This document shows, in pieces, positions 33,387-39,302 of a DNA stretch of 64,000 nt. Positions within the stretch are counted from its first letter, which is position 1. Every line of letters begins with the position of its first letter. A model generated the notes under the pieces. The model did no database searches. It had not been told where the DNA came from and was given only the letters and a program-made list of their open reading frames with translations. Source of the stretch: a virus; the UHGV virus genome UHGV-0306641. One strand, 5' to 3'. The position numbers were made by a program, and so were the translations under genes.

Positions 33387-33456
33387 TGATCAGTAAGCAG
33401 GGAGAAACCTACATGATCAAATGAGTGATCAAAAAAAGTGATCATTTGCGTGATCA
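33387..33456. repeat. Cluster of five TGATCA (Dam-site) hexamers at the pacA 5' end; pac-like site, possibly also parC-like
   Basis: TGATCA at 33387, 33414, 33426, 33439 and 33451 with ~12-13 bp spacing; includes TGATCACTCTAA. The P1 pac site is built from TGATCA/G hexamers regulated by Dam methylation. Confidence 0.45.
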
Positions 33457-33512
33457 CTCTAAAAACCAGACCGCCTATCCTCGCGGCAGAGTGGTTTTGG
33501 GCGGTAGGCGTA

Positions 33513-34742
33513 ATGGCAAAGATTGACTGGGATTGGCACAGGGAAAATTATAAAAAACATAAACTTGAGTCAGGTGTGACTTACAAGGAGTATGCCGAAT
33601 ACCATTCCTTAAACCCGAATACCGCACGCCGCGAACTGAGTAAAAAGGTGGGTGATGAGGGGCAGGCACCCACGGTCCCGTCGCGTGATCAGGATGATGA
33701 TCTAACCATCAGGAGAAAGGGGAGAAAACTCAAGCATAGCAGTGCCTTAGAGGAAATTACCGGGCAGGGTGAACCCGGCGAAACACGCGCAGGCACGAAA
33801 AATAAAAAAAATAATTCCAAAGGCACACGCGCCAAAATGATCAAACCAGTGCATGAGGGGGAAGTGATCCCACATGTACCGAAACAACGAGGTAAGGGTA
33901 AGCAATTCGAAACCGGCAACGAGGTGAATGTTGTCGCGAATACCAGAGGAAAGCCACGCGAGGTTGATCGTGATGCTGCTGTCTCATTGTTGGAAGCTGG
34001 CCTGGAAGAATGCGAGGCATCCACAGTTAAAACAGCTGTCGAGCATATGCAGCTGTTGTCGCGAACCACAGCCAGGGCAGTAGAGCTATTCGAAACTGAA
34101 ATAGCCAATATGAATATCCCACGAGAAAAGGGTGACAAGGATGGTGATGACGATGCTCCGTCCGGGCCACACCCGCTGTTAAAGCTGACAAAACTCCTGA
34201 TTGAAGTCGGCTACAGGATGGATGACCACGCTACCCGTATCAGTTCTATCCGTTCCTCACGAGAAAAGCTCAAGATTGACCGTGAAAAGCTGGGCGCAAA
34301 AGCGACCGAAGCACAGGTTATTGCCACCGCCTACCAGCTGCGTGATGAAAACGACTGGGATATAGCAGAAACCGCTGAGTACATCGAGCGTCATGGGGTA
34401 AAACTGCCGGATTCAATCGCCTTGAGGCTGGCTAAGGAGATCAAGGAAGCAGAACCGCCAGTTAGTGACGTCAACGCTGTAGATGATGACCAACTGGAAG
34501 AAGAGGCCCGTAAATATCGTGAAGCGCAGGCCGGTAAAGAAGCCTTCCTGAAAGAGCGCCGGGAAACTATCGCCAGGATTGTAGACGAGGGCGGGTATGG
34601 CGATACGAACCATGACGGTATCAGGCGCGAAGGGGAGCTAGACCCGGATGAAGAGGGCTTAGATCTCGATTACGAAGCGACCCGCGAGTTATACGGCGAA
34701 GGCGATGAGATCGCGATAGCGCCCCCGGATGAGGACGAATAA
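33513..34742 (+). CDS. pacA: Terminase small subunit, PacA-like
   Basis: Probable ATG at 33513 after AGGCG (track ORF starts 33438). TAATG coupling to the large subunit. Acidic C-terminus. Lies beside the TGATCA cluster. Confidence 0.45.
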   Translation: MAKIDWDWHRENYKKHKLESGVTYKEYAEYHSLNPNTARRELSKKVGDEGQAPTVPSRDQDDDLTIRRKGRKLKHSSALEEITGQGEPGETRAGTKNKKNNSKGTRAKMIKPVHEGEVIPHVPKQRGKGKQFETGNEVNVVANTRGKPREVDRDAAVSLLEAGLEECEASTVKTAVEHMQLLSRTTARAVELFETEIANMNIPREKGDKDGDDDAPSGPHPLLKLTKLLIEVGYRMDDHATRISSIRSSREKLKIDREKLGAKATEAQVIATAYQLRDENDWDIAETAEYIERHGVKLPDSIALRLAKEIKEAEPPVSDVNAVDDDQLEEEARKYREAQAGKEAFLKERRETIARIVDEGGYGDTNHDGIRREGELDPDEEGLDLDYEATRELYGEGDEIAIAPPDEDE

Positions 34743-36253
34743 TGGCATCCGGGAAGAAGAAAATTAAATGTGTAACCTCTGATCCGCGCTGGCGTGAAAT
34801 GGCTATCCGCTATCGCCATGACTGGGGGTTAGCGGTCGTTGAATTGTTCGGAATGCAACCGAGCTGGCAGCAGGATGAAATACTGCAGTCTGTCCAGCAG
34901 ATAAAGAGCATGACAACCGTTACTTCGGGGCATGGTACTGGTAAGTCATCCCTGACAGCCATGATGCTGATGATTTACATGATCCTGTACCCGGATGCGC
35001 GCGTCGTCATCATCGCGAACAAGATTGCGCAGGTAAAATCCGGCGTATTCAAGTACGTGAAAACCTTTTGGGCCAACGCCGTAAAACGTCATCCGTGGCT
35101 GCAGAACCACTTTGTTTTAACCGACACCATGTTTTATGAGAGAAGCCGGAAAGGGGTGTGGGAAGTTCTCTGTAAAGGCTATCGTCTGGGTAATGAGGAA
35201 GGGCTGGCAGGGGAACACTCCAAACACTTACTGATCATCTTGGATGAGGCGTCCGGTATCTCTGATAAGGCGATCGGCATCCTGACCGGTGCGCTGACGG
35301 AAGCTGATAACCGCATGCTTATGCTGTCCCAGCCAACGCGCCCGTCTGGTTACTTCTACGACTCTCACCACAGCCTGGCGAAGACTGAACATAACCCTAA
35401 AGGGATCTGGACGTCGATTGTCCTCAACTCTGAGGAATCACCGTTTGTAACAGACGACTTTATTGTCATGAAGCTGGCGGAATATGGCGGTCGTGACAGC
35501 ATGGAATACAAAATCAAGGTACTGGGCCAGTTCCCGTCCGTGATTGATGGCTTCCTGTTGGGCCGCGATGCCTGTGAGCGCGCCCAGCGTCGTAAAGTGT
35601 ACCTTGAGAAAAACTGGGGCTGGGTGGCGCTGGCTGACGTTGGGAACGGTCGTGACAAATCCGTCCTGAACATTATGAAGGTAAGCGGCTATCGTGAGAA
35701 ACGTCGGTTCGTTCCGTTCGTTGTGCTTGAAATGCCGGGTACCATGAACCCTACAGAGTTCGGTGACTTTATTGCGAACGAATGTACTCAGGAGCGGTTC
35801 CCCAATATCACTATAGGCGTGGATAGTGACGGCGTAGGCTCAGCTACTGCCGATCAGCTGGAGCGCAGGGGGGTTAACGTTGTCCGTATCCGCTGGGGTA
35901 AACCTATGTTCGCCAAAACAGATAAGGACCGATTCGTAAGCCAGAGAGCCTATGCCAACATCGCAGCTCGTGACGCCATACAGACGGGACGTATGAGGCT
36001 GGACTCATCGCCAAAGACAGCAGAACAGGCTTCAAAGATACCTTGGAAGATAAACGAAGATGGGCGTGTGGCGATGATGAAAAAGGATTACATGCGGCAG
36101 AAGATGAATATCAAGTCGCCAGACCGTTGGGATACGTACTGTTTTTCAACGCTTATATCGTATCGCCCTGCAAATGATGACCTGGGTGGAGACATGGAAG
36201 AAACCCGCGCAGATGCACTGGCAGAACTGTCGAAATATGACGATGTGATTTAA
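34742..36253 (+). CDS. pacB: Terminase large subunit, PacB-like (ATPase plus nuclease)
   Basis: 503 aa. Walker A 'TSGHGTGKSS'; Walker B 'LLIILDEASGI'; C-terminal acidic nuclease-domain residues. Confidence 0.65.
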   Translation: MASGKKKIKCVTSDPRWREMAIRYRHDWGLAVVELFGMQPSWQQDEILQSVQQIKSMTTVTSGHGTGKSSLTAMMLMIYMILYPDARVVIIANKIAQVKSGVFKYVKTFWANAVKRHPWLQNHFVLTDTMFYERSRKGVWEVLCKGYRLGNEEGLAGEHSKHLLIILDEASGISDKAIGILTGALTEADNRMLMLSQPTRPSGYFYDSHHSLAKTEHNPKGIWTSIVLNSEESPFVTDDFIVMKLAEYGGRDSMEYKIKVLGQFPSVIDGFLLGRDACERAQRRKVYLEKNWGWVALADVGNGRDKSVLNIMKVSGYREKRRFVPFVVLEMPGTMNPTEFGDFIANECTQERFPNITIGVDSDGVGSATADQLERRGVNVVRIRWGKPMFAKTDKDRFVSQRAYANIAARDAIQTGRMRLDSSPKTAEQASKIPWKINEDGRVAMMKKDYMRQKMNIKSPDRWDTYCFSTLISYRPANDDLGGDMEETRADALAELSKYDDVI

Positions 36254-36283: not shown

Positions 36284-37318
36284 TCAATCTTTCTTAGTCA
36301 GGATGTTAAAATTCTTACCGCGACGGCTGCGTGTATCTCCAAACATAGAACGCAGCTCTGAGATAGTAAGAATATTGTTATTGTCGGTCGCAAACTTCCT
36401 TTCAAGTAATTTACGGTCCTCTTCTGTAAGCAATTCAAGCTTACGCCTACCCGCCTCTATTGAGCGGTTAGCTTTTTCTATTTCAGCCTCTGTTTTTGCC
36501 TTTGCCAGCTTAGTTTTAGCCCGTCTTTCAAAGTGGGTAATACGGCTTAAAATTGATTGCTCAACGATAGTTTTTTGCGCAGCTTTGGCCTCTGCAATCT
36601 CTATTTGGTCAATGCCGTAAATATCCCCAACCGTAAATATTGAGCACTTCAATGGTTTTATAAGACTATACTTATTGAAATATTCTGTTTTAGGCTCAGT
36701 TGATATTTTAATGTCGTCCTTTGTCCATTGCGGGTGATAAATCATGACGCCATGAGTCCCGCAACGTGCGCGCGTACTCTCATTTTCACCTTTAAAAACA
36801 ACATCTAAGACAGTATCCTGATACCCACTGACACGGTATCGGAACTTGTGTCCTTCGGGGTATGCTTCAAATGTTTCCATTTCCTCAGTGAGCGCTTTAA
36901 CGGCTTCATTTGTATGAGGAAACTTTCTAAGTTTCTTTATTTGCTTTTCATATCTATTAAGCAAATCCTCGCGTGTATGAGTGCATGTTGTTGCAGCATT
37001 AAAAAAACCAATAGCTACGGACACTGGTTCAATTATTAACATTGGAACCGGTGAATATATAGCTGTCGATATGGCTATGCTTTTGTTTTTCTTCATCTCA
37101 GTAGCAAGTTCAGCAAACTTTTTCCACCGAATTTGTAAATCAACAGCTTTATTAAAAATAGCCTCATCGTTTGAAAATGCGATAGGACGAATCTTCTCGT
37201 CTTTGGCATTTCTGCTGTGACAGATGGCGAGTGAATCAACCAGTTGCATCCAGTCTTTTTTGGTCTGCAAAAACAACTTGTACTGCTGCTCAAACATCAC
37301 GTCATTAAACGCTGGCAT
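36284..37318 (-). CDS. Hypothetical protein in a low-GC island (possible defence/accessory moron); Lys/Glu-rich coiled coil in the transcript 3' part
   Basis: 344 aa on the opposite strand, between pacB and lox-cre. Lower GC (~37%) than the neighbours. Confidence 0.45.
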   Translation of the reverse strand: MPAFNDVMFEQQYKLFLQTKKDWMQLVDSLAICHSRNAKDEKIRPIAFSNDEAIFNKAVDLQIRWKKFAELATEMKKNKSIAISTAIYSPVPMLIIEPVSVAIGFFNAATTCTHTREDLLNRYEKQIKKLRKFPHTNEAVKALTEEMETFEAYPEGHKFRYRVSGYQDTVLDVVFKGENESTRARCGTHGVMIYHPQWTKDDIKISTEPKTEYFNKYSLIKPLKCSIFTVGDIYGIDQIEIAEAKAAQKTIVEQSILSRITHFERRAKTKLAKAKTEAEIEKANRSIEAGRRKLELLTEEDRKLLERKFATDNNNILTISELRSMFGDTRSRRGKNFNILTKKD

Positions 37319-37664
37319 TGTGTGATTGTCCTTTTGGTTGTACTAACACGTTCTTACCCACTTGCTACCCACATTGAAAGTAATCAACGAACACGATAAA
37401 GCCTTAGAAAGACAGCGATCTCAATAAAGCCATGCTTCCAGCACCTTATGCGTCACGTCGTCTGGCAGGTGATCACGCAAAATGATCACCAATCTGAGGT
37501 AACGACGACCAGGTAACACAATGACCGACCTGAATCCCATCGCCCTCATCCTGAGTTAGCTCATTCATGTGGCCTGTCATGAGTACATACTAAAGCAAAC
37601 CTTTCCCTTTATATATACTTTTGATTCTAAGCTCACTCACGTTTCAACCAAAATAGGCAAAAAA

Positions 37665-37698
37665 ATAACTATAGATAATGGGGGTTATATAAAGTTAC
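37665..37698. other. lox-like recombination site (13-bp inverted arms, 8-bp spacer)
   Basis: ATAACTATAGATA-ATGGGGGT-TATATAAAGTTAC, against loxP ATAACTTCGTATA-ATGTATGC-TATACGAAGTTAT. Outer ATAACT/AAGTTA and the spacer ATG are conserved. Lies ~180 bp upstream of the cre homolog. Confidence 0.5.
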
Positions 37699-37874
37699 GT
37701 GCTATGATCAGCTCAACGGGTTATCTTGGTGATCATTTTAGAGGCCTGTGAAAGATTGGGACCATTGGCGTTGCTGGTGGCCTTATTTTTTACGTAGCAC
37801 GTCGTTTCTTAGAAAGTATGTATTTTGAATGAGGACGTTTTACACGGTTCTCGCGTTATCAAGGAGGTCATAAC

Positions 37875-38900
37875 TTGAACTATCCGAATATTATCAACAT
37901 GAATTCGAGTTTTCCCGAGCTTACGGGGATCACTCCAGAGGAAGTTGCACAGAATCTACGCAAATTCATGGCGGATAAAGAGGCATATTCTGAAAATACG
38001 TTCAAAAAACTAACATCGGTTGTCCGGGCGTGGGCTGTGTGGTGCCAGAAAAATCAGATCGCACCGCTGCCGATTATGCCCGATTGCGCCAGAGCTTATT
38101 TTCTGGAACTACATGAAGCCGGTGTTGCATCCACCAGCATCACCAATCATTTTGCGATGCTTAACATGTTGGCCCGAATTTGTGGGCTTCCTGATCTGAA
38201 AAACTGTACAGAAGTGCAGCTGGCGATGAAGAAAATTCGCCGCCAGTCCGTTCTTGGCGGAGAAAAGACCGGGCAGGCCGTCCCGTTCCGGCTCGCCGAC
38301 CTGCAGTTAGCCAGCCATATTTTGTCCCAGTCCGACCGGCTTGCCGATTTGCGCAACCTCGCTTTTCTGTACGTAGCCTATAACTCCCTTCTTCGAATAC
38401 AGGAGATCGCCCGAATCCGGGTAAAAGACTTATCCGTTAACGATGAGCGGATAATCATGGATATTTCTCACACGAAAACAGTCGTGACCGCCGCAGGCGT
38501 CATCAAACATCTGAGTGTTCCAGCCAGTAATATGTTGAAAAAATGGCTAAATACTTCAGAGCTGATCAGCCATCCCGACGCGGTTGTGTTTTGTCGTGTA
38601 TTTAAAAATGATCGGGTACAGATATCCGAAACACCGATGACGACACCTTCACTGGAAAAAATATTCCAAGATACCTGGCGGCTGCTGGGCAGACCATCAC
38701 AAACCACCAACAAAGGAAGGTATGAAATGTGGTCTGGACATAGCGCCCGAGTCGGAGCTGCACAAGATATGGCTGAGCGCGGAGTGAGTATGGCGCAGAT
38801 AATGCACGAAGGAACATGGTCAAAACCGGAGACAGTAATGCGCTATTTACGACGCCTGAAGAACGAAAACAGCGCCATGAGTGACATAATGGAAAGGTAG
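37875..38900 (+). CDS. cre: Cre-family tyrosine recombinase
   Basis: 341 aa, TTG start after AAGGAGGT. Long colinear matches to P1 Cre: 'IRNLAFLGIAYNTLLRIAEIARIRVKD' vs 'LRNLAFLYVAYNSLLRIQEIARIRVKD'; 'WSGHSARVGAARDMA' vs 'WSGHSARVGAAQDMA'; catalytic R..H-R-W and a Tyr in 'VMRYL'. Confidence 0.85.
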   Translation: MNYPNIINMNSSFPELTGITPEEVAQNLRKFMADKEAYSENTFKKLTSVVRAWAVWCQKNQIAPLPIMPDCARAYFLELHEAGVASTSITNHFAMLNMLARICGLPDLKNCTEVQLAMKKIRRQSVLGGEKTGQAVPFRLADLQLASHILSQSDRLADLRNLAFLYVAYNSLLRIQEIARIRVKDLSVNDERIIMDISHTKTVVTAAGVIKHLSVPASNMLKKWLNTSELISHPDAVVFCRVFKNDRVQISETPMTTPSLEKIFQDTWRLLGRPSQTTNKGRYEMWSGHSARVGAAQDMAERGVSMAQIMHEGTWSKPETVMRYLRRLKNENSAMSDIMER

Positions 38901-38981
38901 ATACGCATCATTCTAAGGCTTTAATTTGTTGTAACGTGACTATTATTAGGACAAAATCGGACACGCGCCAAAGGAGGTGTT

Positions 38982-39302
38982 ATGTCGGATCTTGTCCTGC
39001 TTCACAGGCACTTTGTCATTGACCATTGCAAGCTTAGTTTTACTGCAGGCATCAAACATGGTCGTGCCGTGGTAGTTTTTGGCATAGCCACTCAATCCGA
39101 AGTAACCCCCCTCCTGACGCTTGAAAAAGAGTACCCGGACCGTAACGCCGCTTGTCAGTACGTACAGCGAGTGACAGAAACGGCAGCGCGCAAGTTGCTG
39201 GTTTACTACCAGAACGAGCACCAACCATTAGTTGACCGCATCAATAACGTGTTTTCCGGGCCAATCCGACTGGAATATTCCAGCCGCCACAAACCAGCGT
39301 AA
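38982..39302 (+). CDS. Hypothetical protein
   Basis: 106 aa with a GGAGGT RBS upstream; an ATTCTAAGG motif lies 60 bp upstream. Confidence 0.4.
   Translation: MSDLVLLHRHFVIDHCKLSFTAGIKHGRAVVVFGIATQSEVTPLLTLEKEYPDRNAACQYVQRVTETAARKLLVYYQNEHQPLVDRINNVFSGPIRLEYSSRHKPA

Follow-up and report, generated by a model that had tools for sequence, protein, structure and literature searches.

The 64,000-nucleotide stretch of virus genome UHGV-0306641 analysed here (the window) carries, at positions 37,319 to 38,900, an intergenic region of 556 bp followed by a gene for a tyrosine recombinase of the Cre/Dre family. An inverted repeat in this intergenic region resembles the recombination sites on which such enzymes act. 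An earlier note on this DNA had proposed a diverged Cre/lox pair whose gene is accompanied by Dam methylation sites, and we have followed up both parts of this proposal. The recombinase gene and its putative target have the following layout.

37875..38900, plus strand: gene for a Cre/Dre-family tyrosine recombinase, 341 amino acids (aa), TTG start, stop codon included (from the open reading frame list and homology)
37861..37867, plus strand: strong Shine-Dalgarno sequence AAGGAGG, read from the sequence, 7 nt ahead of the TTG start
37666..37697, plus strand: rox-type recombination site TAACTATAGATAAT GGGG GTTATATAAAGTTA, 32 bp organised as 14-4-14, 177 nt upstream of the start codon
37666..37679, plus strand: left arm TAACTATAGATAAT, predicted binding site of one recombinase monomer
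37684..37697, minus strand: right arm, TAACTTTATATAAC on that strand, matching the left arm at 11 of 14 positions
37679..37684, plus strand: predicted 6-bp strand-exchange (overlap) region TGGGGG, from alignment of the site to loxP and the Cre cleavage stagger

Taken together, the region is with high probability the module for cyclisation and dimer resolution in a Citrobacter phage-plasmid of the D6/P1 type, consisting of a Cre/Dre-family recombinase and a single 32-bp target. We observe that the recombinase has homology to the family and an intact set of catalytic residues, that the synteny is conserved, and that the site is unique and co-varies with the recombinase across lineages. From these we infer the catalytic activity of the recombinase, its cleavage positions and its biological roles.

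The recombinase and its putative target

The recombinase aligns with Cre of phage P1 along its whole length, as had been claimed: its residues 3-340 pair with residues 7-346 of Cre (PDB 1kbu, E 9e-80), such that both the N-terminal helical and the C-terminal catalytic domain of Cre are covered, and its 341 aa fall within the range of 300-400 aa. The estimate that the two proteins are roughly half identical was too high, since the actual figure is 42.5% (tblastn; 43% with MAFFT). The closest characterised relative is Dre of phage D6, with 50.9% identity over 98% of the protein. A match to the Pfam family PF00589 (Phage_integrase) is found with E 2e-19. The residues R174, K201, H289, R292, W315 and Y324 (window numbering), equivalents of the catalytic residues R173, K201, H289, R292, W315 and Y324 of Cre, are all present and are invariant in an alignment of 21 sequences. 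The open reading frame 37875..38900 thus encodes a full-length Cre-family tyrosine recombinase with a complete catalytic hexad. Its TTG start is backed by the aligned N-termini in the 21-sequence alignment, and start codon and Shine-Dalgarno sequence are also found in relatives of 81-89% identity (intergenic alignment A2). The databases, in which the protein is represented by WP_234105101.1 and relatives, name it only generically, as "tyrosine-type recombinase/integrase", and a literature search that included the arm and centre sequences, but did not cover the roughly 500 predicted pairs of PMC10250229, found no publication on the recombinase or the site.

The candidate lox that had been placed at 37665-37698 held up: 37666-37697 is the only inverted repeat of its kind in the intergenic region 37319-37874, and the outer ends ATAACT and AAGTTA are present. 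When 37665-37698 is taken as a 34-bp site, its 34th base is C, and the arms, read as 13 bp, match at 10 of 13 positions. The longest exact runs common to the two arms of the site are 5 nt; a scan that tolerates mismatches detects the repeat. As to a different lox elsewhere, the half-sites have no second match in the 64-kb window, and a half-site search of a complete 85.6-kb matching plasmid returned exactly one copy of the site. One copy per genome is what is expected of a cyclisation and dimer-resolution site.

Comparison with the two best-known sites shows which of them is nearer. The annotated rox of D6 (GenBank AY753669), which in gene orientation reads TAACTTTAAATAAT TGGC ATTATTTAAAGTTA, is identical to the site at 26 of 32 positions. 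The loxP of P1, ATAACTTCGTATA GCATACAT TATACGAAGTTAT in gene orientation, is identical at 20 of 34, or at 23 of 34 when flipped to its conventional orientation. A likeness to loxP that had been seen in an ATG at the start of the spacer depends on this choice, because it exists in the conventional orientation but not in that of cre, where the P1 spacer is GCATACAT. Judged by its sequence, 37666-37697 is therefore rox-like and not loxP-like. Contrary to the initial assignment to Cre/loxP, the nearer known system is Dre/rox, by protein (50.9% versus 42.5%), by site (26/32 versus 20/34) and by architecture. Dre/rox of phage D6 was reportedly described by Sauer and McDermott in 2004.

Cre cleaves its site with a stagger of 6 bp. 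The variable central bases across the family fall within the overlap predicted on this basis, 37679..37684, and since the overlap TGGGGG is asymmetric, the site has a direction. By homology with Cre, one recombinase monomer would bind each 14-bp arm and two sites would synapse as a tetramer, in which Tyr324, with R174, K201, H289, R292 and W315, would cleave and exchange strands across TGGGGG via a Holliday intermediate; accessory factors would not be expected. In the life of the element, the recombinase may circularise terminally redundant phage DNA after injection and may resolve dimers of the plasmid-prophage, which would let the ParM system partition it.

Variation of the site and its surroundings among relatives

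We scanned 171 loci that encode relatives of the recombinase, taken from genomes, viral contigs and metagenome assemblies. Apart from 34, they all have a rox-type core ATAAT-N4-NTTAT at a distance of 120-350 bp upstream of the recombinase gene. Twenty of these 34 are P1-type loci that carry loxP (confirmed in four), and the remaining 14, from other genera, were left out of the closer look. A site of the same architecture in the same place is present in relatives from 99% down to approximately 41% protein identity, many of the relatives from Pantoea, Erwinia, Rahnella and Xenorhabdus, at 41-49%, carrying the same ATAAT-N4-NTTAT core. At 83-99% protein identity, sites identical to that of the window are found, and the following relatives illustrate the stepwise change.

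89% relative: central bases GGGA
81% relative: right arm GTTATATATAGTTA, a one-base difference from the window's site
74% relative: TAGGTATAGATAAT GGGG CTTATATAAAGTTA
72% relative: TAGGTTTAGATAAT AGGC ATTATCTAAAGTTA
68% relative: TTACTATAGATAAT AGGC ATTATCTATACCTA
57% relative: AAACTTTAAATAAT AAGC CTTATATAAAGTTT
51% relative: site equal to rox

In distant lineages both arms change together, for example to TAACATAGGATAAT...ATTATCCCATGTTA and TGACTTCATATAAT...ATTATATGAAGTCA, and these symmetric changes follow the lineage of the recombinase. Such paired changes are the pattern that would be expected of two half-sites bound by one co-evolving protein. Furthermore, the site is the best-conserved block in an intergenic alignment of nine lineages. 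The asymmetry of the window's arms is itself kept in relatives down to 83%, and at 81% with one arm position changed. The right arm of the window's site equals the left arm of the site in a 49% relative (L137) except for its innermost base (C in the window, T in L137), and the right arm of L137 is identical to it. These graded relatives, with arms that change stepwise at 81, 74, 72, 68, 57 and 51%, amount to a natural data set on the co-evolution of recombinase and site.

With respect to the centre of the site, a D6-like IMG/VR contig of 51% identity (L129) has perfect rox arms around the central GGGG of the window, and the centres GGGG, GGGA and GGGT are met again in lineages that include Rahnella and Xenorhabdus. 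The centre therefore varies independently of the arms.

The surroundings of the module point to the same type of element. Over 37300-39000, the DNA has 97.4-97.5% identity with seven circular plasmids, all complete and 84-95 kb in size, from Citrobacter freundii and C. portucalensis, and megablast returned no near match to this stretch among annotated phages. One of the matching plasmids, NZ_CP114569.1 (85,590 bp), carries head, portal, tail, baseplate and terminase genes and encodes RepB, ParM and Ref, as well as a Cin-like invertase next to tail-fibre genes, toxin-antitoxin genes and a Dam-family methyltransferase. The element is a P1/D6-type phage-plasmid of Citrobacter. Upstream of the site lie three genes.

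33438-34742: pacA, the start of the gene order
34742..36253, plus strand: pacB (terminase large subunit), 74% identical to D6 PacB and annotated as terminase in the matching plasmid
36284..37318, minus strand: divergent gene for a C1-type repressor, 344 aa, with 29% identity to C1 of D6 across 323 aa (E 7e-37)

The order pacA-pacB-c1 (reverse)-site-recombinase is the annotated order in D6 and P7, and the synteny of terminase, C1 and recombinase is kept in every lineage that was looked up individually, seven further ones among them. With this order on circular plasmids, the locus fits the immC module of P1/D6-type phage-plasmids, which are circular plasmid prophages of approximately 85-100 kb. 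Homologues of the C1-type repressor in relatives match the Pfam family PF27008 (Phage_P7_repressor_C1); since the repressor here is only 29% identical to D6 C1, immunity differs. An open reading frame of 42 aa at 37421-37549 (minus strand), in the position of coi in P1 and P7, was rejected as a Coi-like gene because this stretch is poorly conserved, with relatives that differ by large indels, and carries no annotation in the plasmids.

A span of 70 bp (33387-33456) at the very start of the pacA open reading frame holds five TGATCA hexamers, with more at 33686 and 33838; this cluster is probably a P1-type pac site. A Leclercia relative (L175) has four TGATCA at an exact spacing of 12 bp (1222-1258) just upstream of pacA, and known pac clusters are present in P7, whereas the D6 fragment has no such TGATCA cluster. 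The recombination site lies approximately 4.2 kb downstream of the pac-like cluster, as lox does relative to pac in P1.

Dam sites and other intergenic features

The second part of the earlier proposal was that four TGATCA hexamers flank the site and the promoter of the recombinase gene, in parallel with the Dam-regulated expression of cre in P1. All four hexamers are present, and two of them lie within the arms of a further inverted repeat that brackets the recombination site.

37470..37475: Dam site TGATCA, approximately 150 nt upstream of the divergent gene for the c1-type repressor; 5 of 9 lineages retain GATC
37483..37488: Dam site TGATCA, at a distance of 13 bp from the 37470 hexamer; 7 of 9 lineages retain GATC
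37705..37710: Dam site TGATCA within a -10-like TATGAT, 8 bp after the recombination site; 5 of 9 lineages retain GATC
37730..37735: Dam site TGATCA, aligned to the -35 column of a promoter resembling pR1/P3cre in the clade of 68% relatives; 7 of 9 lineages retain GATC
37479..37492: AAAATGATCACCAA, the left arm of a perfect inverted repeat of 14 nt, containing TGATCA; only the GTGATC core is common with the 89% relative
37726..37739: TTGGTGATCATTTT, the right arm of this 14-nt repeat, containing TGATCA

It is conceivable, though on balance improbable, that this cluster is a working Dam switch for both the recombinase gene and the divergent c1-type gene, as at pR1/P3cre of P1. The clustering is beyond chance: TGATCA is not enriched across the window (23 found, 18.3 expected), yet four within 270 bp were seen in only 1 of 1000 shuffles, and the hexamer context is biased, TGATCA accounting for four of the five intergenic GATC versus 8.6% of GATCs window-wide. 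The perfect inverted repeat that holds two of the hexamers also speaks for such a switch. The annotation of P1 lists three Dam sites in the regulatory region of cre, one directly after lox and two in the -35 of P3cre/pR1, and these are the corresponding places; the octamer TATGATCA at "Dam methylation site 1" of P1 equals the octamer after the site here, which includes the 37705 hexamer. In the clade of 68% relatives (L169-L171) the pR1 core TGATCA-N4-TGCGCTACGT-AAAAT is conserved, with a score reached by none of 200 shuffles, and the 37730 hexamer of the window aligns to its TGATCA. The element also encodes its own Dam-family methyltransferase, and methylation of TGATCA therefore need not rely on the host.

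Against a working switch stands that a sigma-70 scan of 37250-37950 predicted no promoter, and that the pR1-like element of the window has diverged in its -10 part and the rest of the core, such that its similarity to P1 pR1 is not significant (score reached by 66 of 200 shuffles). The conservation of GATC at the four positions is partial, and the 81-83% relatives, in which the recombination site is one base off (81%) or identical (83%), have lost three of the four. In D6 there is no GATC between rox and dre. The parallel with P1 is thus a reasonable lead rather than an established one: the sites are clustered and their positions correspond, but the evidence for a pR1-like promoter in the window is weak.

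Two observations on adenine methylation may be added. By annotation, a large Dam-family adenine methyltransferase and a 2280-aa N-6 DNA methylase of NZ_CP114569.1 (45223-47556 and 12725-19567) resemble Dmt and DarB of P1. Moreover, part of the pac-like cluster, GTGATCATTTGCGTGATCAC (33438-33457), approximates the reverse complement of the hexamer pair upstream of c1, GTGATCATTTTGCGTGATCAC (37469-37489), with an exact 13-mer in common. An extended motif common to the two was rejected as a conserved feature, with no shared 11-mer or longer in the Leclercia lineage; the 13-mer looks lineage-specific or coincidental.

Closer to the recombinase gene lies a block that is conserved in the intergenic alignment, and a motif within it recurs elsewhere in the window.

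37786..37816, plus strand: conserved block TTTTTTACGTAGCACGTCGTTTCTTAGAAAG, approximately 60 nt upstream of the start codon, with invariant columns in alignment A2
17460, 31064, 31252, 37402 and 37807, plus strand: copies of the motif CCTTAGAA(T)
38911, 42117, 43382 and 51629, minus strand: further copies of the same motif

The invariant pattern of the block is ACGTAGCnC...TTTCTTAGAA, and it includes TCTTAGAA at 37807-37814. It was not detected by the sigma-70 scan and is a candidate operator or weak proximal promoter, which may matter more than the Dam sites. The motif CCTTAGAA/TCTTAGAA is over-represented in the window, with nine copies found and 3.1 expected (1 of 100 shuffles reached nine), and most copies of CCTTAGAA have A+T-rich flanks. 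Three copies surround the recombinase gene: one near the start of c1, one upstream of the recombinase gene itself and one just past its stop codon. This trio is kept in the 74% and 68% relatives that were checked, and in an 83% relative two of these copies remain. The D6 fragment, with its C1 of only 29% identity, lacks the motif. From this distribution, CCTTAGAA could be the operator of the element's C1-type repressor. Its reverse complement, TTCTAAGG, resembles CTCTAAT, the core of the P1 C1 operator.

The CCTTAGAA motif just upstream of the c1-type gene is flanked by an imperfect direct repeat of 19 nt, CAACGAACACGATAAAGCC/CAGCGATCTCAATAAAGCC (37385-37403 and 37413-37431), whose copies have 79% identity. 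A terminator-like hairpin with a T-run after it (37762-37789, plus strand) is located between the proximal block and the downstream TGATCA sites, and it could attenuate read-through from the site region into the recombinase gene. Expression of the recombinase is probably low, because of the TTG start and the lack of a strong promoter. More speculatively, it may be modulated by Dam methylation together with CCTTAGAA as a C1 operator.

Specificity and relation to known systems

The earlier note raised the prospect of a new heterospecific pair, and the residues that govern the choice between loxP and rox bear on this. K43, R259 and G263 of Cre (R, P and K in Dre) discriminate loxP from rox via positions 8-10 of the site, and residues 258, 262, 266 and 284 modulate the discrimination (PMC7438526). 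At these positions of Cre the following residues are found.

Position 43: window K, Cre K, Dre R
Position 258: window T, Cre T, Dre A
Position 259: window P, Cre R, Dre P
Position 263: window K, Cre G, Dre K
Position 266: window Q, Cre E, Dre S
Position 284: window E, Cre L, Dre R

In the site, the arms differ from rox at arm positions 6 and 9, which are positions 7 and 10 in the 13-bp numbering of lox. The mosaic of K43, T258, P259, K263, Q266 and E284, together with these arm differences, makes a specificity distinct from both Cre and Dre plausible.

Several points weigh against our reading of the locus as a recombinase with its own target. Related Cre-type pairs frequently cross-recombine (PMC10250229, from the same laboratory as PMC7438526), and a distinct specificity is therefore not assured. 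The arms of the site are imperfect (11/14), whereas those of rox and loxP are perfect. At lox position 7 the left arm carries A, while every active site of PMC10250229 has T there. The pipeline of that study allowed at most two arm mismatches with an 8-bp spacer, and with three mismatches in its 13-bp arms the site would probably have been excluded by this filter. To these is added the lack of a predicted sigma-70 promoter.

An alternative is that the pair is functional but that its arms and those of rox are mutually recognised by the two enzymes, which would make the site a natural rox variant separated from rox only by its central bases. Only two of 14 positions per arm differ from rox, P259 and K263 are two of the three discriminating residues and are as in Dre, and the three differences between the enzyme's own arms imply tolerance there. 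Cross-tests moreover show activity of Dre on lox2 and lox11, and Dre and Panto each act on the site of the other (PMC10250229). However, identity to Dre is only 50.9%, residue 43 is K and not R, and positions 44, 89, 90, 241, 243, 258, 266 and 284 are also unlike Dre. The sites of Cre and Dre, with differences at 3 of 13 positions per arm, are nevertheless fully discriminated (PMC7438526), and the differences from rox here include position 10, inside the discriminating region. We regard a mere rox variant as possible but doubtful. In either case, the centre TGGGGG, compared with TTGGCA as the inferred 6-bp overlap of rox, should block recombination of the site with rox itself.

A stronger version of distinct specificity is less probable still, and we consider it unlikely: the pair might represent a third orthogonal class between Cre and Dre, with half-sites that naturally differ (A7/G10 in one arm, T7/T10 in the second) and a gene under the combined control of a C1-type operator (CCTTAGAA) and Dam. 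If this were true, either one protein would read positions 7 and 10 loosely or the asymmetry of the arms would fix the order of strand exchange, and joint control by a C1 operator and Dam would be unlike that of P1 cre.

It is very improbable that the inverted repeat serves mainly in transcription, as an operator or promoter element, with the true recombination site lying elsewhere or requiring extra flanking sequence: a -10-like TATGAT does follow the site in most lineages and a promoter-like TTGGCA-16 nt-TATAAT spans rox in D6, such that the site overlaps possible promoter elements, but its D6 homologue is rox, a site defined by experiment according to the annotation from the original study, neither the window nor the full plasmid holds a further copy or similar repeat, and symmetric co-variation of the two arms across many lineages fits a dimer of a co-evolving recombinase.

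A Cre/Dre-family recombinase with a single target thus remains our reading of the locus, and Dre/rox is the system that it resembles most. Common to both are arms of 14 bp around four central bases in a site of 32 bp, a position of the site 150-180 nt upstream of the gene, the synteny pacA-pacB-c1-site-recombinase with a PacB that is 74% identical, and the residues P259, E262 and K263. They differ at about half of all residues of the recombinase, including K43 (R in Dre), T258 (A), Q266 (S) and E284 (R) as well as positions 44, 89, 90, 241 and 243. In the site, two positions per arm (lox 7 and 10) and two of the four central bases (GGGG here, TGGC in rox) deviate, and the arms match each other at 11 of 14 positions here versus 14 of 14 in rox.

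With Cre/loxP of P1 and P7, the module has in common the fold, the catalytic residues and its position next to c1 and pac. It further shares the outer arm ends ATAACT/AAGTTA with loxP, K43 and T258 with Cre, and Dam sites downstream of the site with P1. In the recombinase, however, R259 of Cre is replaced by P and G263 by K. There is no cra open reading frame, the gap between site and gene is 177 nt versus 416 in P1, and no coi or imc genes lie between c1 and the site.

By site and key residues, the pair is neither of these two systems itself. Dre/rox proper calls for arms near-identical to rox, and here the identity is 26/32; of its residue set R43/P259/K263 plus A258/S266/R284, two of the three key residues match. 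Cre/loxP proper has a 13-8-13 site and K43/R259/G263, compared with a 20/34 match, P259 and K263 here.

The recombinase and its site are the same kind of object as the Cre-type tyrosine site-specific recombinase (Y-SSR) pairs compiled in PMC10250229, such as Panto/pox, Vika/vox, VCre and YR1-YR12, with approximately 500 predicted. The criteria used there were a Cre-type recombinase of 300-400 aa, a conserved catalytic hexad and a palindromic target within 1 kb of the gene; eight further pairs were validated in 2023, and the pipeline validated about half of its predicted pairs. Orthogonal Cre-type recombinases are of use for lineage tracing and for genome engineering in several steps, where every new validated pair provides one more channel. 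In this context, the recombinase described here is a reasonable candidate for an additional orthogonal enzyme and adds a useful point to a natural series of co-evolution. It stands approximately midway between Cre and Dre at the specificity residues, and its arms are naturally asymmetric, and it could therefore help to show how half-site positions 7 and 10 are read. Current understanding is not overturned by it and a specialist would not be surprised: the recombinase and its site are an ordinary addition to a large family that is already known, which is expected, as P1/D6-like phage-plasmids generally carry such a module.

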